A stretch of DNA of 64,000 nt, taken from the NCBI RefSeq assembly GCF_016026235.1, contig NZ_CP065613.1; one strand, given 5' to 3'. The position numbers and the translations under genes were made by a program. Each line of letters begins with the position of its first letter. Position 1 is the stretch's first letter. A model generated the notes under the pieces. The model was not told the DNA's origin, ran no database searches, and was given only the letters and a program-made list of their open reading frames with translations. Below are positions 11,819-24,027 of the stretch, piece after piece. This stretch comes from Escherichia coli (GTDB lineage: Bacteria > Pseudomonadota > Gammaproteobacteria > Enterobacterales > Enterobacteriaceae).

Positions 11819-11908
11819 GTCACTCACTCTTTTTTGAATATCCATCCCTGGGGGGCTTTTATCGTCTTTGCTTTACCGCCAGGGCGTCGGCCCCAAGTAT
11901 AAAGCAGA

Positions 11909-11944
11909 TAAAAACAAAAACACCATTGCGCAGGCAATGGTGTT
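11909..11944 (-). terminator. Rho-independent terminator downstream of sra
   Basis: On the minus strand: stem AACACCATTGC, loop CTGC, stem GCAATGGTGTT, followed by TTTGTTTTT. Confidence 0.55.
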
Positions 11945-11974
11945 TAATCGTCATTGAGGACTGATGGTTATGAA

Positions 11975-12112
11975 TTACTTTTCAGCGGGGCGTTTTCTGC
12001 CGGTTGGGTTATTTACTACGCTGGATTTGTCACCTTCGGTAACTATTTTGCGCTGGTTAGAAATTTTATGGTCCAGTCCAAGAATATGACGTGCCTGACG
12101 GTTCGATTTCAT
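11975..12112 (-). CDS. sra: Stationary-phase-induced ribosome-associated protein (45 aa)
   Basis: Minus-strand translation [45 protein letters not shown]. Absent from the ORF track because it is under 60 aa. Confidence 0.85.
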
Positions 12113-12213
12113 TTTAACTCCTCAATCCTGTAGCTAGTTTTAAGGACAACATCGCCGTAGCGAAGAAACACGTGCTAAACCCCTAAATTAGGTTGCCGAT
12201 CAAGCATAGCACC

Positions 12214-12429
12214 TTAAAGCGTAGGGTGCTGGCCACTGACCACATAATTGATCGTTTGCTGGTAGATATCACTGAGGATGTCGTTATCAGAAGCTTCCAC
12301 CCATTTGGTCAGCTCCATGAGAATGTCATCTTCAGTGACAACACCGTGCTGTGCCCGAAGGCCTTGCTCAATGGCATTAACCAGAGCGGGTTCTGCTGTT
12401 GAATTTTCTGCCTGATAATAAGTAAACAT
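12214..12429 (-). CDS. bdm: Biofilm-dependent modulation protein
   Basis: Start at MFTYYQAENSTAEPALVNAIEQG (71 aa) inside the listed 92-aa ORF. Confidence 0.8.
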   Translation of the reverse strand: MFTYYQAENSTAEPALVNAIEQGLRAQHGVVTEDDILMELTKWVEASDNDILSDIYQQTINYVVSGQHPTL

Positions 12430-12645
12430 AGTGATTCTCCGTGTCTGTGTATTTATGGTGTCTGCTACGGATCGCAGATTTATAAAGCACATTCAGCATG
12501 GCAAATATTTGCCGCTTCGTTGTTAAGATTAGTCCTAGTTGATGATTTTTATATTTTAACTCCATGATATTCATAGGGATTGTGATTGGTATGATCCGAT
12601 TAATATTGATACAATATCTTTTGGGTTATATATTCCCGGTAATCT

Positions 12646-12681
12646 ATTGTGGGAATTTAATTTATTGTGGGAATTTAATTT
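12646..12681. repeat. Perfect tandem duplication, 2 x 18 bp (ATTGTGGGAATTTAATTT)
   Basis: Units at 12646-12663 and 12664-12681 are identical; lies in the bdm-osmC intergenic region about 110 bp upstream of osmC. Confidence 0.9.
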
Positions 12682-12792
12682 AAGTACAGAAGTAATATTT
12701 CTGCCGGATTTTTATTCGGAATATCCTGCTTATCCTCGTGCTGTTTCTCACGTAGTCTATAATTTCCTTTTTAAGCCCACAGGAGAGCAACA

Positions 12793-13224
12793 ATGACAAT
12801 CCATAAGAAAGGTCAGGCACACTGGGAAGGCGATATCAAACGCGGGAAGGGAACAGTATCCACCGAGAGTGGCGTGCTGAACCAACAGCCGTATGGATTT
12901 AACACGCGTTTTGAAGGCGAAAAAGGAACTAACCCTGAAGAACTGATTGGCGCAGCGCATGCCGCATGTTTCTCAATGGCGCTTTCATTAATGCTGGGGG
13001 AAGCGGGATTTACGCCAACATCGATTGATACCACCGCCGATGTGTCGCTGGATAAAGTGGATGCCGGTTTTGCGATTACGAAAATCGCACTGAAGAGTGA
13101 AGTTGCGGTGCCGGGTATTGATGCCTCTACCTTTGACGGCATCATCCAGAAAGCAAAAGCAGGATGCCCGGTTTCTCAGGTACTGAAAGCGGAAATTACG
13201 CTTGATTACCAGTTGAAATCGTAA
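12793..13224 (+). CDS. osmC: Osmotically inducible peroxiredoxin OsmC
   Basis: 143-aa ORF with OsmC/Ohr fold sequence and conserved Cys pair. Confidence 0.92.
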   Translation: MTIHKKGQAHWEGDIKRGKGTVSTESGVLNQQPYGFNTRFEGEKGTNPEELIGAAHAACFSMALSLMLGEAGFTPTSIDTTADVSLDKVDAGFAITKIALKSEVAVPGIDASTFDGIIQKAKAGCPVSQVLKAEITLDYQLKS

Positions 13225-13279
13225 AGCATTGCCGGATGACGCGTCAGGCGCGTGAATGCCTGATGCGTTGTTAGCATCT

Positions 13280-14206
13280 CTACAGCGCCCGCCAGCACCG
13301 GAGCTCACGTCCGTCCTCCCTTATTGTTAATGATTGCCGGACTTCACATCCGTGGGTTGCCAGAGGGCAACGTTCGTAGAAAAAACAGCCTTGCGGCAAC
13401 GTGCGGTTTCCTGGCAGTTCCGTTTTACGTAATGCCCATTCTTCCTCCAGCGGTTTATCAATGGCGGGGAGGGAATCCAGCAATAATCGGGTGTATGGAT
13501 GTGCCGGAGCCGTTAGCACCTGTTGCGCGTCGCCCAGTTCTACAATCTGCCCGAGATACATCACCGCCACCCGATCGCTCATATGACGTATCACCGAGAC
13601 ATTGTGTGAAATCAGCACATAAGTCAGCCCGTGATTTTCCTGTAGCGTTACCAGTAAATTGAGGATCTGCGCCTGCACGGAGATATCCAGCGCCGAGGTT
13701 GGCTCATCAAGCACAATCACGTCAGGCTGCGAAGAGAGTGCTCTGGCAATGGCGATGCGTTGCCGCTGCCCGCCGGAGAACGCATGAGGCAGGCGGTCGA
13801 GATACTCCGGACGAATACCCACCTGCACAGCCAGCTCCTCTGCCAACGCTCACCGCTGTTGTTCACTACTACGCTTAGCTATCCAGAGCGGTTCTGTGAT
13901 GATGCGCCACACCGGTAAGCGCGGATTAAGCGAAGAGAGCGGGTCCTGAAACACCATCTGCATAATGCGTTGTGAGCCTGAACGGATGTACTGCCCGTGG
14001 CTCGGTTGCAGCATGCCCATTAAAAGCTGTGCGAGGGTGCTTTTGCCGCAGCCTGACTCGCCGACGATCCCTAAGGTTTCACCACGGCGGATCTGTAAAT
14101 CAATACCATTAATGGCATGAACATGTTCCGTAGTTTTACCAAGCCAGTTTTTACGGGCCGGGAAATTGATATGGACGTCGCGTAACGTTAATAACGTGTC
14201 AGACAC
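13280..14206 (-). pseudogene. ddpF: Dipeptide ABC transporter ATPase DdpF interrupted by an in-frame TGA (minus-strand codon 119, plus coordinates 13850-13852)
   Basis: The 118-aa ORF (13850-14206, Walker A GESGCGKST) and the 188-aa ORF (13280-13846, LSGGQ and Walker B) are in the same frame, reading ...[18 protein letters not shown].... Total 309 codons equals the 308-aa DdpF I recall plus stop. Confidence 0.7.
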
Positions 14207-15167
14207 TTATGACCTCCTGCTGCGGATACCAACAGGCGCAGCGCTGGTTGTTGTCACCACACGCTGTCAGCGCCGGGACGTTTTCACACTGTGCACCTGC
14301 CGCATAGCAACGATCGCGAAAAGCGCAGCCGTCAGGCAAATGGGTGAGGTTTGGTACCGTCCCTGGAATGGCGGGTAATGGCTGGCGTGGTACTCCATGT
14401 TCTGGTGCGCATTGCAGCAAACCAATGGTATACGGATGCCGGGGATGATGGATAACGTCTGCCGTCACGCCGCTTTCAATTACGCTTCCGGCATACATCA
14501 CGTAAACGCTATCGCACAGTTGCGACACCACGGCCATATCATGGCTGATGAACAGTACCGCAGTTCCACTGGCGCGGGCTTTATGTTTAAGCAAACGCAG
14601 TACCTGCAACTGTACCGTGACGTCCAGCGCCGTAGTCGGTTCGTCGGCAATAATCAATTGCGGCTCGCAGGAAAATGCCAGCGCAATCATAACCCGCTGG
14701 CGCATACCACCTGAAAGCTCAAACGGATAGCGCGACATAACTTCCACGGCATCCGGGATTTGCATCTCTTCCAGCAGGGCAATCGCTTTAGCTCTGGCTT
14801 CCCGACGACTTATTGGTTGATGATGGCGGATTACGTCCATCATCTGAAGACCTATTCGACGTGTCGGATTAAGAGCGGTCATCGGTTCCTGAAAGATCAT
14901 CGCCACTCGTGCGCCGCGCCACTGACGAAGCTGTTTTTCCCGAGCGTTAAGAACATCTTCTCCCAGCAGTGAAATCTGCCCCCGATGTACGCAATAACTG
15001 CCCGTCGGTAGCAGACGCATAATCAGCATTGCGGTGACTGATTTACCTGAGCCGGATTCTCCCACCAGACCGACAATTTCACTGCGGTTAATCTGCAAGG
15101 ACACATTGTTGAGCGCGTGAACATCACCGTTAAAACCGGGGAAACTCAAATGCAGCTGTTGAATGTT
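14199..15167 (-). CDS. ddpD: Dipeptide ABC transporter ATPase DdpD, 5'-truncated at a deletion junction (native start and RBS missing)
   Basis: ABC ATPase (GESGSGKS, LSGGMRQR). The frame upstream of ...NIQQLHLSFPGF is closed by TAA at 15171-15173 and abuts the dosC fragment. Confidence 0.7.
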   Translation of the reverse strand, partial: NIQQLHLSFPGFNGDVHALNNVSLQINRSEIVGLVGESGSGKSVTAMLIMRLLPTGSYCVHRGQISLLGEDVLNAREKQLRQWRGARVAMIFQEPMTALNPTRRIGLQMMDVIRHHQPISRREARAKAIALLEEMQIPDAVEVMSRYPFELSGGMRQRVMIALAFSCEPQLIIADEPTTALDVTVQLQVLRLLKHKARASGTAVLFISHDMAVVSQLCDSVYVMYAGSVIESGVTADVIHHPRHPYTIGLLQCAPEHGVPRQPLPAIPGTVPNLTHLPDGCAFRDRCYAAGAQCENVPALTACGDNNQRCACWYPQQEVISV

Positions 15168-15952
15168 CTGTTATTCAAATTCCTGGTGTTACGCATGGTT
15201 TGATTGAAAATACCGTCGAAATCCTGAATCAGACGAGAGATATGGCCCACTTCAGCAATGCCGCTGAAATAATGTCGACCTTTATGGTTAAACCACAGGC
15301 CAAAATCAGCCTGGCTTAAAGGCAAACTACTGCCTAAATCAGAATCCAGCAGGATTTTATAGATGATATCTATTTCCCATGAAAGTATTGAGGCTATTTG
15401 CCGTTCTTTTTCTTCTTCGGCGTTTTCCAGTAACGAGAAGATACGATAGTTTTCATCTTCTTTTGAGGCACTACTGTCACTAAAGGTAAACGCGCGGGTC
15501 ATCACTTCCATAGCGATATCAATACTGTTAATCGAGAAATGGTAGACCTGAAGTTTTTCTGCGGCAGAATAATCCGAAGAGAAGATTACCGGATAGAGGA
15601 TCTTTTTCAGCACCCGAAACCCCATCTCGACAATTTCTACCGGAATTCCTATGCGGGCATGCACTTCCGCGACGGTATGCTGGATTTGTATTAGCCTTTC
15701 GACATCGTCAACCTGGGCAGAAAGCACGTTAATAATCCAGCGTTCCATCGCACTCTTCAACTGCCGCTCAACTTGTTCATTACTCAAGAATTCTTCGGCA
15801 TGCGGGTCGATGCGGACAATTCGATAAAACTCAATACTCAGATAATGAGCATGCGCAACGGCAATTTCCGCGGCTTTAGCACGAATGGGCGGATCTGCCT
15901 GTTCGACAAGCCCGGTCCACTCATCTTTCATTCTTTTAAAATACATCTCCAT
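15146..15952 (-). pseudogene. dosC: Diguanylate cyclase DosC, 3'-truncated: globin sensor and middle domain only, GGDEF domain absent
   Basis: MEMYFKRMKDEWTGLVEQ... matches DosC through ...NTRNLNNR, then reads TFNSCI-stop (268 aa versus about 460 expected). Confidence 0.7.
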
Positions 15953-16328
15953 AATTCACACCCTTATAAGGCTGGGAAATCAGACGGAATCAAAATGAAA
16001 CGCAACGTGCGAGATCGACTAACTGCACCATATTCTCCTGAAATATGAAGATATACTGAAAAGAAATAAGCGACTTAGGACAGTTTCAATCTACGCTACT
16101 GTTCTTCAGAAGAGTATAGCCCATCGTAATTATTTTTCGGTGACTGCGAATATCGTATGGTTTTTCATATTCATACATTTTTATTAGGGGGATTATGGCT
16201 GTTTAACTAAGTGTCGTTAATTGCGTGGTTAATTTGACTTTAGTAAGCATGATTGCTGGTGGGATAGTTCAAGAGGGTAACAAGCCAGTGGGTAAAGCAC
16301 CGGCTTGTTACAAAGTAAGAATGGGAGT

Positions 16329-17648
16329 TTAACTGCCCCAACGACTTTGCAGATAGCTGACCGCTTGTTGAGTCTGCGGTTTATTCAGATAGTCCTCACG
16401 GAACAAGATGGTGCCGCTAATTTCTGGTACCGCATCGTTAAGATCGAGCTGCTTTTTCAGTTCCGGTACGCCGCCGTTAATCATCCAGTCTGGCTCTATC
16501 TTTGAAGGTTCACCCACTTTATAGAAGGCGATACCGATATACAGGCGGGTCCTGGTCGGTTTAACGACATCCGCCCACCATTTTGCCAACACGTCATAAC
16601 GCGCGGCACTCCGTGAGAACGGCCAGTAAATTTGGGGAGCAATGTAATCCAGCAATCCTTGTTCCACCCATCGACGGGTGTCAGCGTAGGATTCGTCATA
16701 GGCTGCCGCGCCTCGGGTATCGGAACCGAGCGGATCGTGTGATCGGTTACGCCACACGCCTGCCGGGCTAACACCAAATTCGACTCCCGGCTTAATGCTT
16801 TTAATGGTGTGCGATACCTTTGCAATTAACTGCTGAGTATTGTTGCGCCGCCAGTCTGCTTTTGACGCAAATGCGCCTCCGTATTTACGGTACGTTTCGT
16901 TATCATTTAGCCGTGAACCCGGTGACTCCGTATAGAAATAGTCGTCAAACTGCACGCCATCTACGGGATAGCGGGAAACCACTTCTGCGACTATTGATGT
17001 GATCCAGTCCTGAACCTCAGGGATGCCCGGGTCGAGGACAAAGCGATCGCCAGACGTTCTGATCCAGTCGCGGTGTTGCACATAGACGCTCGCCGGTTGT
17101 TGAGGCAGAGTGCTATTCAGTTCCCTGATAGTACCGGGCTTCGTATTAACCGATACGCGATAGGGGTTAAACCAGGCGTGTACTTTCATCCCACGCTTGT
17201 GGGCTTCGTCGAGCATAAATTGCAGCGGATCGTAACCCGGATTTTCACCAATCTTACCGGTCATAAGATCGGACCACGGCAAAATTTTCGATGGCCACAG
17301 GGCGGTACCGTCCGGCTTGACCTGGAAAAAGACCGTGTTTATGCCGAGACGTTGCAGATGATCCAGTTTGTCGATCATCGCCTGTTGTTGTACACGGGCC
17401 CGGCTGGTGGGGTTACTAATGTTAACCGAGGAAACCGGTGGCCAGTCGAGCCGAGAAACCGTGGCCAGCCAGATGCCACGCATCGGTTGTGACGATTGTT
17501 GCGTCGTGGCTGGTGGCTTTGAACCTGCTGGTGGTGTCACCATGGACTCTGGAGGCGTGCTTTTACAACTACACAGTAAAAGTGCCAGTGCAACTAGTAT
17601 CGCTGGTCTTCTAATCGTTAATTTCTTGTTTCGGGAGCAGATATCCAT
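16329..17648 (-). CDS. yddW: Lipoprotein YddW (glycoside-hydrolase-like)
   Basis: 439-aa ORF with lipoprotein signal (LALLLCSC) followed by a TIM-barrel-like domain. Confidence 0.85.
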   Translation of the reverse strand: MDICSRNKKLTIRRPAILVALALLLCSCKSTPPESMVTPPAGSKPPATTQQSSQPMRGIWLATVSRLDWPPVSSVNISNPTSRARVQQQAMIDKLDHLQRLGINTVFFQVKPDGTALWPSKILPWSDLMTGKIGENPGYDPLQFMLDEAHKRGMKVHAWFNPYRVSVNTKPGTIRELNSTLPQQPASVYVQHRDWIRTSGDRFVLDPGIPEVQDWITSIVAEVVSRYPVDGVQFDDYFYTESPGSRLNDNETYRKYGGAFASKADWRRNNTQQLIAKVSHTIKSIKPGVEFGVSPAGVWRNRSHDPLGSDTRGAAAYDESYADTRRWVEQGLLDYIAPQIYWPFSRSAARYDVLAKWWADVVKPTRTRLYIGIAFYKVGEPSKIEPDWMINGGVPELKKQLDLNDAVPEISGTILFREDYLNKPQTQQAVSYLQSRWGS

Positions 17649-17723
17649 ATGTGCTGGTTTCCGGTAAACAGATGTGCGCTCATTCTCGTACTTATCCCGG
17701 TTAAGTCAATACGACAGCAAGCA

Positions 17724-17753
17724 CGAAAAAGGGAGCGATGACTTATCGCTCCC
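17724..17753 (-). terminator. Rho-independent terminator downstream of gadC
   Basis: On the minus strand: stem GGGAGCGAT / ATCGCTCCC with a 5-nt loop, followed by TTTTTCG. Confidence 0.5.
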
Positions 17754-17778
17754 TTGTCTTATAACCATTCAGACATGG

Positions 17779-19314
17779 TTAGTGTTTCTTGTCATTCATC
17801 ACAATATAGTGTGGTGAACGTGCACGCGGGTGCAGGAAGAAGTGACCTTTTGGTGCGTTCTGACTGTTGATTGGCTCCAGAGTGACGCCGGTATTCGCTT
17901 TGCCTTTACGATCATGAACAGCATAGAGAATAAAGGGCAGGGCAAGTACCACCAGGAAACTAACAACCAGTAATTCAACATACATATCGGTAGAATCACC
18001 CTGGATGTTATCCGGCGGCAGGAAGGAAACAATAAACGCCATAATTGAAGTCAGCAGACCGACAATTGCCACGACCAGTTTCACCCCTTTACCACCAGGG
18101 ATATTAAATGTGCGTTTTAAGTCAGGATGTTTAAGAACCAACACAATGTAGCCAATAAACAGCATGAAATAAGCACACAGATAAATCACCACCGTCAGCG
18201 CCAGAGCGATCAGGAAGGACATGTTGTTACCGCCACCGGTATTGGTGAGGATGATCAACGCGATAGAAGTAATCACCAGCTGCGAAATGACCAGCGTTAC
18301 CGGTACGCCATTTTTGTTCATTTTAGCGAATGCCGCTGGCAGCAGGTTTTTCTGCGCTGTGACATACATCCCGCGAGAAGGACCAACAATCCAGGAGGCG
18401 ATTTCCGCCAGAACACCCAGCAACAGCAGTGCGGAGATCACGCGAACCGTCCACTCAATTTCCGGTGCCACATGGGACATCAGAACGGTAAAGGTTTGCA
18501 TTACCCCTGCGGAGAGGTTGATTTCATTACCCGGAATGACCATCGCAATAGACAAACCACCAACAGAGCTTAAGCAGATTGCCGCCACCATCAGCAGTAA
18601 CATAGCCAGTGGATAGTCGCGCCCTGGGTTACTCATTTCATTGACGTGGGTTGCGGAAGCTTCTACGCCCATATAACTCAAAATGAAGGCAACAAATACA
18701 ACCAGGGTGCCCACTTTAGAGAAGTCAGGGAAGAAGGTCTTCGAATCCATTTCGATAGCAACGGGGGCACCGGAGTGCAGATAAATAGCCGCTAATGCGA
18801 TCAAAATAAATGCAGGTAACAGGATACCGGCGAAGAAGCCAACTTTAGCAATTCGCGCCGTGTATTTCGTGCCACCAAACTGCGTTAATGCCAGCGCCCA
18901 AAGAATGATGAGTGCTGCAATAGTTTTGGTAATGGGGTCTTCATTCAGCGCTGGCCATTTCAGGATGTAGGAGAGTGCCCCTAACACGAAATAGAGCATC
19001 GGAATAAAACCAATGGCGATTTGCAGATAGCCAAATGAGATCGCTGCAAATCCCCATCTCGGCCCCAGAGTATTTGATACCCAGGCGAAGACACCACCTT
19101 CTTCCCAGCCGTCGACGGTGGCCATTTCCGCAGCACAAAGTCCCACGGGAATAAACCATAAAATCCCGCCTAATAGCAGGAAGAAGACTAATGAAAAGCC
19201 CGATGTTGCGAAGGTAGGGTATTCATAAACAGCCATTACCATCGATGCCGTTATGGCAAAGAATCCGAGTAATGTGAGCTGCTTAGCTTTACCTGTCTGT
19301 ACTGATGTAGCCAT
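17779..19314 (-). CDS. gadC: Glutamate:GABA antiporter
   Basis: 511-aa APC-family transporter immediately downstream of gadB. Confidence 0.92.
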
Positions 19315-19469
19315 ATTATCCCCCTAAAACGGTATTCCTGTCGGAACCGCACCTGTTTTGTTCTGAAGCGTATTCAGAACAATATTTTCCGTTGCTGATG
19401 CCAGTGAACAGACTTTGGAAATTGTCCCGAAACGGGTTCGTTTCGGGACACCGTTACCGTTAAACGTTA

Positions 19470-20870
19470 TCAGGTATGTTTAAAGCTGTTCTGCTGGGCA
19501 ATACCCTGCAGTTTCGGGTGATCGCTGAGATATTTCAGGGAGGCTTTGTAGTCTTCCAGCAACAGTTCAGCAAAGTCCATTTCGAAGCCGCGACGACACA
19601 TAATGCGCATCACCACGATGTCGGTGGCTTCACCGCCGAGAGTGAAGGCCGGAACCTGCCAGCCGCGCAGACGCAGACGTTCAGAGAGGTCGTACAGGGT
19701 GTATCCCGGATCTTCACCATCTTTCAGTTTGAAGCAAACCGCCGGGATGCCTTCGTCCGGGCGACCCGTACAGATGAACTCATACGGCCCCAGTTTGGCG
19801 ATTTCATCCGCCAGATAAGCGGCAACCTGGTAAGAGGCGTTCTGTACTTTGGTGTAGCCTTCACGACCGAGGCGCAGGAATTCATAGTACTGTGCAATTA
19901 CCTGACCCGCCGGGCGGGAGAAGTTGATGGCGAAAGTACCAATTTGACCACCCAGGTAGTCAACGTTGAACACCAGTTCCTGCGGCAGCGCTTCTTCGTC
20001 ACGCCAGATAACCCAGCCGCAGCCCAGCGGAGCCAGACCGAATTTATGGCCTGAAGCACTGATCGATTTCACACGCGGCAGGCGGAAGTCCCAGACGATA
20101 TCCGGGGCGACGAACGGTGCCAGAAAGCCACCGCTGGCGGCGTCGATGTGCATGTCGATGTCGATACCGGTGTCGGCCTGGAATTTATCCAGCGCATCGT
20201 GCAGCGGTTGCGGGAACTCATAGTTACCGGTGTAGGTCACGCCGAAAGTCGGCACCACGCCGATGGTATTTTCGTCGCAGGCTTCAATCATGCGTTTCGG
20301 ATCCATAAACAACTGACCGGGGCGCATAGGGATCTCACGCAGCTCCACATCCCAGTAGCGGGCGAATTTATGCCAGCAGATTTGCACCGGACCGCACACC
20401 AGGTTTGGTTTATCCGTTGGTTTGCCTGCAGCTTCCATACGCTTGCGCCAACGCCATTTCATCGCCATCCCGCCGAGCATACAGGCCTCGGAAGAACCAA
20501 TGGTGTTGGTGCCAACGGCCTGACCATTTTTCGGCGCAGGCGCATGCCACAGATCGGCAACCATATTTACGCAACGCAGGTCGATGGCTGCGGATTGCGG
20601 ATATTCTTCTTTGTCGATCCAGTTTTTGTTAATGGATAAATCCATCAACTTGTGGACGTTTTCGTCGTCCCAGGTCTGGCAGAAAGTGGCCAGGTTCTGA
20701 CGAGCGTTGCCATCAAGATATAATTCATCATTGATAATCTGAAATGCGACATCGTCGCGCATTTCGTGCAGCGGAAAACGTTTTGATTCTGCGATAGTGG
20801 AAATAGACTTCGCACCAAAACGTGAATCGAGTAGTTCCGACCTTAAATCCGTTACTTGCTTCTTATCCAT
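19470..20870 (-). CDS. gadB: Glutamate decarboxylase beta
   Basis: Start at [19 protein letters not shown] (466 aa); PLP-lysine motif SGHKFG. Confidence 0.92.
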
Positions 20871-20949
20871 TTTAAACTCCTTAAAATGATTGGATCGCAT
20901 TAAAAAAGTAGGATTTATCGATAAAGTAAGCAAGTGCAAAGGACTCTGG

Positions 20950-20969
20950 TTTAAATAACAAAATCCTAA
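20950..20969 (-). promoter_or_regulatory. GAD box (GadE binding site) upstream of gadBC
   Basis: Minus-strand sequence TTAGGATTTTGTTATTTAAA, exact match to the 20-bp gad box as I recall it, about 80 bp upstream of the gadB start. Confidence 0.5.
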
Positions 20970-21231
20970 TGTTATTTATCGTGAGATATTATTGGAATAA
21001 TATTTTTTCATTAAAAAACAATACAATAGAGAATTCTTGGGTGGTGAAAAGGTGTTTTATGTTGTTATTTTTATGCGCTTTCTGTGCCTCCTGAATTATC
21101 ACGTAAAAATCAGACCTTAAAATATCACTATTAGTACTTTGTTATTATTTTGAACGAATTTATAAAATTATTACATAAAAATGGCGAATATTGCTAAAAT
21201 TCCCGCCAACGATGTGTTGACGGGGCTGTTA

Positions 21232-24027
21232 TTATTTTGGCAATAATACTCCGGTATAAGTATTTACCGGATGAGAAAGATATTGTTTAACGGCAGTGTT
21301 AACATTCTCTACCGTCATTTGTTTCAACAATTGCTCCTGCTCAGTCCATGCTACAGGATCGTCATATTGAATAAGACTATTTACAATGGTGTTCGCTAAT
21401 TGTTGAACGCTACGCTGTTGGATATCGAGGCTGCGCTGAACGTTTTGCTGGTATTCATTCAGTTCTTGCTCACTGATCCCTTTAGCCAGACGCTTAACCA
21501 TCACTTCATTCGCTAACGTTAACAGTTCATCATGTCGTTCTGGTTGACAAGTAAAAGCCAGCAAATGACTGATATCTTTGGCCTGAGGATCAACCGAGAG
21601 GCGAGAAGAAACGCTGTATGCCCCAGATGCCTGTTCACGAATATTAACGCGTAGATCTTTTGCCAGTGCGACGTTAAAAGCATCGAGCGCCATACGCGTC
21701 GCCAGATTAACAGGTGTCCGGGAATCATAACGCTTCCACTGTGAAACCTGTGCCACAGGTTCATTTTGTTCTTTTACAGTAACCGATGCGTTGTCCGTCG
21801 CGCGAGTTAATGGTTTACCTGCGGCTAATGGCGAATCAGAGTGTTTGATTGATCCTAAGTAACGCGTAATTAACGCCACGAGTTTGTCTTCTGCGACATT
21901 ACCGACAATGACAAACGTGATATCCGCTGGAGATGAAAACAACTGGCGATCGGCAGCCAGCGCATCCGCGGCAGTAAACTGTGCAATCTGATTTTCTTGC
22001 AGTAATTTCGTGCGGTCATCAGCATAGCGCGTCTCATACATCTGCTGGGCGAATTTCTCCGCTGGACGCTGGTCGAGCGTTTTCAACGCCTGAATTTGAG
22101 CATTTTGTAGCGATGCCCAAATATTGTCGTTAATCGTGCTGTGGGTGATTCGCTGGTTAATCAACTGGAAACCAGGTTCAGGGTTATTAGTCCGCGCGCT
22201 AACGGAGAGCAACGTATTCATGCCACTGACTTTACTGCTCATGGTTACCGAGTTTTCCGCACTCCAGCGTTTCAGGCTGGAAGAGGAGAGTTCGCCAACG
22301 CCGCTTCCGCTAACTGCTTTATTTGCCAGCGCGATAAGTGATTTTTGCTGCGCAGGGAAACTTAAATCGCCTTTATTCGATATGGCAATAATTTGTAGCT
22401 TTTGCTCTTCACCCGCGGATTTTGCCAGAATAACCCTGGCACCATTGGAAAGTGTTAATGATGTCAGATTCTCAGCCAGCGTTTCTTTGCTGCTAATTTC
22501 CGCCTGTGGGTCAGCGTCTACTGTTAACGATAAATTTCTGCCTGGGAAGATGTAAGCCGCCAGCTTTTTGTTGGCGTACTCTTTTTCCAGCGCCAGGATA
22601 GCCGCAGGAGACAATGCTTTATTGGCGGCAACCTCATTGTTTACCATTTGCTCCCAAAATGCGTCCTGGTTCTTTCTTAACTGCTGCCATTTTTCCGTCA
22701 GACTTTGCACGGTAATTTGCTGCCACAGACGTTTCGAAAGTTGATATGTCTCTTCCGGCGACAAGAACGGCGTATTATTTAATGAGCTTGATGCCAGGCG
22801 ACTGGTCAGCATACGTAAATCACGTTCAGCTTGCTGATCAACCGCATTATTCAGCCAGGTGAGGCGGGTAGATTTGACATCATCGAGTTCTTCAGCAGAA
22901 AAACCATGCTGATCAATGGTTGCCAACTCTGCCATTAATGCATTCGCAGCATCCTGCATATTATCGTCTCGTGCATTTACACGGAAAAACAGCGACTGAT
23001 AATCGGGTGCAATTCTAACGCTGCGCGCAGTGCCGCCAGAAATAGTCTTCAACTCGCCCGACTGTATGCGTTCCTGCAGACGTTGATTGAACAGCTGAAC
23101 TAACATGCTCCATTCAGCTTGTTCGATAAAGCTTTGCTCATCGTTCACTTGTACCATTGGCAGGCGATAATAGAGTGCGATGCCGTTCACCCGGTTTTCT
23201 TTATCATTAATGATATTAAAGCGCAGGTGATTTTCGGCTTTTGTCGGCCAGACGCGATTTTCAGCTGCTTTGTTAGCCGGAAGCTTACTTAAATTATCCT
23301 TTATCAGCGCCAGCGCTTCTTTACTGTCGATATCGCCGACCACGATAAAGGTCATATTATTTGGTTGATACCAGCGTTGATAAAATTGGCGCAATTGTGC
23401 CGGTGTGACCGTGGCGACAGTATCCATCAGGCCGATAGGTTCACGGTCTAAATTACGGGTATTAGCCAGCAGGAAAGGGCGGCGCGCCTGAGAGGTGCGC
23501 CATTTCGCATCCTGATGGGCACGCCATTCCTCAGTAATTACGCCACGTTCAGCGTCTACTTCGAGTTTTTCAAAGGTTGCGGCATTACTCCATTCACTGA
23601 AGATTGCCATCACTTGTTGCAGATTTTGTTTCTGCGTAGTTGGTAAACTCACCTGATACACCGTTTCGTCATAGCTGGTATAGGCATTAACATCGCGACC
23701 AAAACGCAGGCCCATTGACTCAAATGTTTCGATGACTTTATTACCCGGCCATGTTTTTGTGCCGTTAAACATCATATGTTCTACAAAATGAGCCACGCCG
23801 CGCTCATTGTCTTCTTCCTGCAATGAACCGGTATGAATTTGCAGCCATAAATTTACCTGATCCTTTGGATGAGCATGCGGATAAATCATATATCGCAAGC
23901 CATTGTCCAGTTGCCCGGTAATTAACTTTTCATCCTGCGGTAAGGCGGCGGCAATCAGCCGCCCGGGGAGCAACAGAGTTGCCACTAACGTCAGTAAGAA
24001 ACAGAGGTTTCTCATAATTATCTCCAT
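21232..24027 (-). CDS. pqqL: Periplasmic M16-family zinc protease PqqL
   Basis: 931-aa ORF with signal peptide and HxxEH zinc motif (HFVEHMMF). Confidence 0.85.
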   Translation of the reverse strand: MEIIMRNLCFLLTLVATLLLPGRLIAAALPQDEKLITGQLDNGLRYMIYPHAHPKDQVNLWLQIHTGSLQEEDNERGVAHFVEHMMFNGTKTWPGNKVIETFESMGLRFGRDVNAYTSYDETVYQVSLPTTQKQNLQQVMAIFSEWSNAATFEKLEVDAERGVITEEWRAHQDAKWRTSQARRPFLLANTRNLDREPIGLMDTVATVTPAQLRQFYQRWYQPNNMTFIVVGDIDSKEALALIKDNLSKLPANKAAENRVWPTKAENHLRFNIINDKENRVNGIALYYRLPMVQVNDEQSFIEQAEWSMLVQLFNQRLQERIQSGELKTISGGTARSVRIAPDYQSLFFRVNARDDNMQDAANALMAELATIDQHGFSAEELDDVKSTRLTWLNNAVDQQAERDLRMLTSRLASSSLNNTPFLSPEETYQLSKRLWQQITVQSLTEKWQQLRKNQDAFWEQMVNNEVAANKALSPAAILALEKEYANKKLAAYIFPGRNLSLTVDADPQAEISSKETLAENLTSLTLSNGARVILAKSAGEEQKLQIIAISNKGDLSFPAQQKSLIALANKAVSGSGVGELSSSSLKRWSAENSVTMSSKVSGMNTLLSVSARTNNPEPGFQLINQRITHSTINDNIWASLQNAQIQALKTLDQRPAEKFAQQMYETRYADDRTKLLQENQIAQFTAADALAADRQLFSSPADITFVIVGNVAEDKLVALITRYLGSIKHSDSPLAAGKPLTRATDNASVTVKEQNEPVAQVSQWKRYDSRTPVNLATRMALDAFNVALAKDLRVNIREQASGAYSVSSRLSVDPQAKDISHLLAFTCQPERHDELLTLANEVMVKRLAKGISEQELNEYQQNVQRSLDIQQRSVQQLANTIVNSLIQYDDPVAWTEQEQLLKQMTVENVNTAVKQYLSHPVNTYTGVLLPK

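Follow-up and report, generated by a model that had tools for sequence, protein, structure and literature searches.

The ddpF gene of this Escherichia coli chromosome is cut by an in-frame TGA, and the question that this locus raises is whether the triplet marks a plain loss of function or whether a working DdpF ATPase could still be obtained, be it by recoding, by assembly from two fragments or simply because the base is wrong. The window, by which we mean the whole stretch of 64,000 nt that was analysed, has a gene content typical of the E. coli chromosome (fdn, adhP, maeA, osmC, ddp, digH, gadCB, pqqL and lsr). We are very nearly certain that what it holds at this site is an ordinary nonsense pseudogene of an already known gene, lying within a larger operon deletion, in other words a case of ordinary gene decay.

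The ddpF reading frame and its internal stop

The ddpF gene lies on the minus strand, for which the initial annotation gave no strand, at 14206..13280 (927 nt and 308 codons, as read in the minus-strand translation of window positions 14209..13280). The otherwise full-length frame contains a single internal stop, a TGA at codon 119 (13852..13850, appearing as TCA at 13850-13852 of the plus strand), begins with GTG at 14206, runs through 118 sense codons up to the TGA and continues for another 189 until the natural stop at 13282..13280. The 5′ fragment (codons 1-118) thereby occupies 13853..14206 and the 3′ fragment (codons 120-308 plus the stop) 13280..13849, both on the minus strand; in the list of open reading frames the same pieces are given as 13850..14206 (118 aa) and 13280..13846 (188 aa). 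The length of 308 codons matches the RefSeq-annotated ddpF of E. coli FDAARGOS_943 and of E. coli O103:H2 12009, and the earlier claim that two same-frame ddpF ORFs are split only by the TGA and together reach the expected length is borne out, as 118 codons, a stop and 189 codons against a reference of 308. The window ddpF does not offer an uninterrupted 308-codon frame with a complete nucleotide-binding domain, and judging by its sequence it is a pseudogene of its family and not a functional member. The appropriate annotation for ddpF is that of a pseudogene with an internal stop.

An ungapped comparison of window positions 13200-14300 (1,101 nt) gave 2 differences with FDAARGOS_943 (99.8% identity), the nearest complete genome, and 12 with O103:H2 12009 (98.9%). 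Base 13852 is one of the only two differences that separate the window from FDAARGOS_943 over these 1,101 nt; it is an A in the window and a G in both references, so that in gene sense a CGA codon (Arg) has become TGA. The nonsense mutation put forward in the initial annotation, which had proposed a reference comparison to identify the ancestral codon, is thus a single C>T transition (G>A at plus-strand base 13852), designated R119*. In order to estimate the frequency of the allele, we used a 41-mer centred on base 13852 with megablast at word size 28, a setting in which any match necessarily spans the central base. The CGA version, which is the positive control of the method, matched 4,052 of 5,426 complete E. 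coli genomes, and the TGA version, sought on two haplotype backgrounds, matched 0 of the same 5,426. The exact 118-aa product of R119* is indexed in 150 blocks of a public gene-position collection, a rough frequency only, since some of the genes counted in such blocks are truncated at the end of a contig (e.g. L015).

Protein domains and predicted effect of the stop

For the protein-family scans, codon 119 was conceptually restored to Arg. Pfam then recognised ABC_tran at residues 33-171 (102.5 bits) and oligo_HPY at residues 222-287 (74.7 bits), and the best NCBIfam match was PRK11308 (dipeptide ABC ATP-binding protein) with 320 bits, below its 408-bit cutoff. The restored DdpF has the features of an Opp/Dpp-type ABC ATPase (PF00005 plus PF08352), namely Walker A, signature, Walker B and the oligo_HPY region. 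Walker A (GESGCGKS, residues 49-56) and the Q-loop (Gln, residue 87) are encoded by the 5′ fragment, the premature stop takes residue 119, and the signature (FSGGQ, residues 143-147), Walker B (VIVLDE, residues 163-168), the H-loop (SHN, residues 200-202) and the oligo_HPY C-terminal region all fall on the 3′ fragment. The stop is therefore inside ABC_tran, between the Q-loop and the signature, in agreement with the initial observation that it separates Walker A from the signature and Walker B. Residue 119 is located in the helical subdomain, and the closest solved homologue aligns an Arg to it in one ATPase domain and an Ala in the other, which means that the position is not catalytic.

By the change of CGA (Arg119) to TGA through one C>T, translation would halt in the nucleotide-binding domain and leave a 118-residue stub. 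Such a stub, with Walker A and the Q-loop and without the signature, Walker B and the H-loop, would be expected to form neither an ATP-hydrolysing ABC dimer nor composite ATP sites, and we infer the loss of DdpF function from this established architecture of ABC ATPases. Among the stop codons of E. coli, UGA is the leakiest. Given this leakiness and a plausible Shine-Dalgarno/GTG pair 8 codons downstream, traces of full-length or split DdpF products could conceivably still be made.

A 7,355-bp deletion removed most of the operon

We mapped the deletion against the corresponding locus of FDAARGOS_943 (L011; osmC-ddpFDCBAX-dosP-dosC-digH-gadC). Window positions 12807-15166 match positions 1-2360 of that locus and window positions 15166-20000 match its positions 9716-14550; the missing 7,355 bp comprise nt 1-19 of ddpD, the whole of ddpC, ddpB, ddpA, ddpX and dosP, and the last 596 nt of dosC. 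A deletion upstream of ddpF had already been noticed; once mapped, with its junction at 15166/15167, it is wider than ddp alone, as it also took dosP and part of dosC. At the junction (15166..15167, without strand), the microhomology amounts to 1 nt (T), and there is no IS element. An IS-mediated deletion was considered and rejected, as no IS or repeat of at least 200 nt is found at the junction or as a repeat in the window, and the microhomology is limited to that 1 nt. A 41-mer across the junction was not found in complete E. coli genomes, and it is present in assembly GCA_900449985.1 (L005) and in the Logan assembly of run SRR23545530 (L010).

Two remnants border the junction. The ddpD remnant (14199..15166, minus strand) lacks the first 19 nt of the gene (the start codon and codons 1-6), still shows the Pfam domains ABC_tran and oligo_HPY, and does not share the frame of the dosC fragment upstream of it. 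The truncated dosC (15146..15952, minus strand) consists of about 262 native codons followed by 6 out-of-frame codons and a stop, and its 268-aa product has the globin and the DosC middle domain and no GGDEF. These remnants should be labelled truncated dosC and start-less ddpD, not intact genes.

The ddpXABCDF genes form a single operon whose transcription starts at the ddpX promoter and is controlled by RpoN/NtrC (PMC8743547), and this promoter lies within the deleted segment. The 7,355-bp deletion, which we attribute to illegitimate recombination, fused the truncated dosC to the start-less ddpD; with it went the ddpX promoter and the genes for the dipeptidase, the binding protein and the two permeases. 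A complete set of partner genes (ddpX, ddpA, ddpB, ddpC and ddpD in one operon) is accordingly not found in the window. Since the operon promoter and the partners are deleted, the TGA would have no remaining functional consequence in this genome. The view that the whole ddp system is non-functional is supported: ddpX, ddpA, ddpB, ddpC and the start of ddpD are deleted and ddpF is stopped, from which the strain is predicted to be unable to import or hydrolyse D-Ala-D-Ala through Ddp. The oxygen-sensing c-di-GMP module DosC/DosP is lost as well, with dosP and the GGDEF half of dosC deleted, and this loss may be more consequential than that of ddp.

In regards to the order of events, two other datasets are informative. 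The Logan assembly of run SRR13627093 (L007) and assembly GCA_902503985.1 (L003) carry the window's ddpF haplotype with the TGA, with 0 and 1 differences, respectively, and yet they have full-length ddpX, ddpA, ddpB, ddpC and ddpD (193, 516, 340, 298 and 328 aa, respectively) plus dosP. The occurrence of the TGA in an intact operon makes it most parsimonious that the stop is older than the deletion; R119* probably came first, and the 7,355-bp deletion later, in a sub-lineage represented by the window, L005 and L010. L005 (contig UGFA01000002.1) is 100% identical to window positions 5850-22206 (16,357 nt) and presumably represents the very genome of the window or a clone of that genome, and L010 agrees with the window in the TGA and in the junction of the deletion, with 2 SNPs against it in 11.1 kb. 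In this sister isolate (L010) the decay of the dosC remnant is continuing, one of the 2 SNPs, a C>T at position 3792 (window position 15715), adding a further stop that splits the remnant into ORFs of 79 and 172 aa.

Neutral decay or adaptive loss

Taken as a whole, the locus is best explained by neutral decay of a dispensable operon for D-Ala-D-Ala uptake and utilisation that is induced by starvation and nitrogen limitation, and we infer relaxed selection on ddp. The alternative that best survives is that the loss of ddp was adaptive and that R119* is a recurrently selected inactivating allele, which we consider improbable and which nothing in the data calls for. It draws on the distribution of the allele, the TGA at codon 119 (nt 355 of ddpF) being present on at least 3 distinct ddpF haplotypes, the window's included. 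Relative to the window, the ddpF sequences of loci L004 and L006 show 29 and 17 differences, and those of L008 and L009 show 16 and 15, respectively; in these four loci the distinguishing SNPs flank the stop on both sides, within about 20-95 nt of it, and the operon is otherwise intact. This suggests that R119* arose independently more than once. The region has also decayed independently in FDAARGOS_943 and in O103:H2 12009, which could likewise be taken in favour of selection. In FDAARGOS_943 (L001/L011, NZ_CP065615.1) ddpB and digH contain internal stops, maeA is frameshifted and an IS1 separates it from sra, and O103:H2 12009 (L002, NC_013353.1) has an independent deletion of dosC, dosP and the 5′ part of ddpX. 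We read the decay of the operon in these genomes as a sign of relaxed selection on a dispensable function.

However, neighbouring nonsense alleles in ddpF are indexed at the same order of magnitude, with 63 blocks for Q117*, 85 for Q116* and 40 for W108* (that is, 40-85 as against 150 for R119*). Codon 119 is the only CGA within the first 239 codons of ddpF, and these counts are what would be expected from relaxed selection combined with a C>T bias at that codon. The absence of the allele from all 5,426 complete genomes speaks against a sweep, and it is not known to confer a phenotype. For the same reasons, we did not retain R119* as an exceptional mutational hotspot: Q117*, Q116* and W108* are also common, and the modest enrichment fits the C>T bias together with clonal sampling. 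The broader proposal of a hotspot in E. coli at ddp and the adjacent dosCP, where inactivation would recur and might be selected, is in our opinion unlikely to be correct; if it were true, importing and hydrolysing D-Ala-D-Ala would seem to be costly to fitness in some niches. Under neutral decay, which we prefer, R119* matters little beyond correct annotation.

Split gene, recoding or sequencing error

It could also be proposed that ddpF has become a split gene, in which the 118-aa N-terminal fragment and a re-initiated 182-aa C-terminal fragment associate into a working ATPase. An in-frame GTG does occur shortly past the stop, at codon 127 (13828..13826), preceded 6 nt upstream by GAGGAG, a Shine-Dalgarno-like motif, and gene finders call a 182-aa ORF from this GTG in every assembly with the allele. 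The presence of the motif before the GTG explains these calls, but GAGGAG corresponds to two wild-type Glu codons and is not a new feature. Moreover, residues 119-126 would be missing and the domain would be cut within the helical subdomain, and with DdpB, DdpC, DdpA and the ddpD start codon deleted there would be nothing left to energise. A functional split DdpF is therefore very improbable.

Even less credible is a recoding of the TGA, whether as selenocysteine or through programmed readthrough, that would yield a complete DdpF. What could be said for selenocysteine is that TGA is its codon and that the selenocysteine machinery does have targets in this genome, one of them, fdnG with its SECIS, in the same window: the genuine selenocysteine site of fdnG (plus strand) is a TGA at 4313-4315 that splits its frame into ORFs at 3728-4315 and 4364-6775. 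We took advantage of this site as a positive control. In a permissive Rfam scan of both strands of window positions 3000-17000 (E<=1), the fdnG SECIS_3 element (RF01989) was detected at 4310-4368 with 84.3 bits and E=3e-19, but no match was obtained near 13850. Segments of 63 nt and 101 nt that surround and follow the ddpF TGA folded no better than shuffled sequences (z = 0.18 and 0.23, respectively). These two results led us to discard selenocysteine at codon 119, and they uphold the initial view that it was unlikely given that no SECIS-like hairpin follows the TGA. A selenoprotein gene would have a SECIS 3′ of the UGA and relatives with UGA or Cys at the position; ddpF has no such element, and its relatives have CGA, so that the ancestral residue was Arg and not Cys. 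Against recoding in general, the TGA 41-mer was found in none of the complete genomes, as opposed to the thousands with the CGA 41-mer, and residue 119 is, as mentioned above, not catalytic.

Finally, that the TGA is a sequencing or assembly error in a ddpF that is really intact, an alternative the initial annotation had raised and one that a one-base difference from the closest complete genome could in principle produce, was dropped and is scarcely conceivable, since the identical allele is found in separately sequenced and assembled datasets (GCA_900449985.1, GCA_902503985.1, SRR13627093, SRR23545530 and others), and since L010 combines the TGA and the junction with 2 other SNPs and therefore represents the same lineage in a different isolate or run. 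This agreement of independent runs and assemblies excludes error for practical purposes and indicates that the R119* allele is real.

Other disrupted genes and repeats in the window

Disruptions are also seen elsewhere in the window. A second disrupted ABC ATPase gene is lsrA (autoinducer-2 ABC transporter ATPase; 55484-57021, plus strand), which appears to be frameshifted by a 2-bp GA tandem duplication at 56335-56336, the window having TGAGAC where E. coli EC22 has TGAC. As in EC22, an ISEc20 transposase of the IS110 family (46975-48171, plus strand) splits an ECSE_1600-type autotransporter gene (45161-51917); the larger autotransporter fragment consists of two overlapping ORFs (48185-49939 and 49887-51917), an arrangement suggestive of a further frameshift. 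Positions 8392-8473, which are intergenic and close to yddM and fdnI, gave sub-threshold Rfam matches to naRNA4 and ES036 (REP-like), probably ordinary REP repeats.

Comparison with known systems

The known system to which the window gene belongs is E. coli DdpF (YddO), the ATPase of the DdpABCDF D,D-dipeptide importer. Both occupy the same site (osmC / ddpF-ddpD) with the same 927 nt, and the window gene shows 98.8-99.8% nucleotide identity to RefSeq-annotated E. coli ddpF and the same ABC_tran plus oligo_HPY architecture, as befits an orthologue. It differs from that system in having TGA for CGA at codon 119 and in the deletion of the rest of the operon. Among proteins of solved structure, the closest relatives are Opp/Dpp-type ATPases, namely M. 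tuberculosis Rv1281c OppD (8j5q_D) and E. coli OppF (8z21_D) and DppF (8z1v_D). The similarity to OppD, OppF and DppF extends across the nucleotide-binding domain and the C-terminal extension, with E values of 1e-72 to 1e-99, and these ATPases share with DdpF the order of the motifs (Walker A, Q-loop, signature, Walker B and H-loop). Nevertheless, OppF, DppF and Rv1281c are intact functional subunits, whereas the window DdpF polypeptide stops before the signature motif. With fdnG, ddpF has in common an in-frame TGA that divides an otherwise continuous frame. The difference is that fdnG has a SECIS hairpin at and after its TGA, while in ddpF, which is without such an element, the TGA is a rare derived allele. 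The two genes thus provide, within a single window and with an internal positive control, a clean case for telling a nonsense TGA from a selenocysteine TGA.
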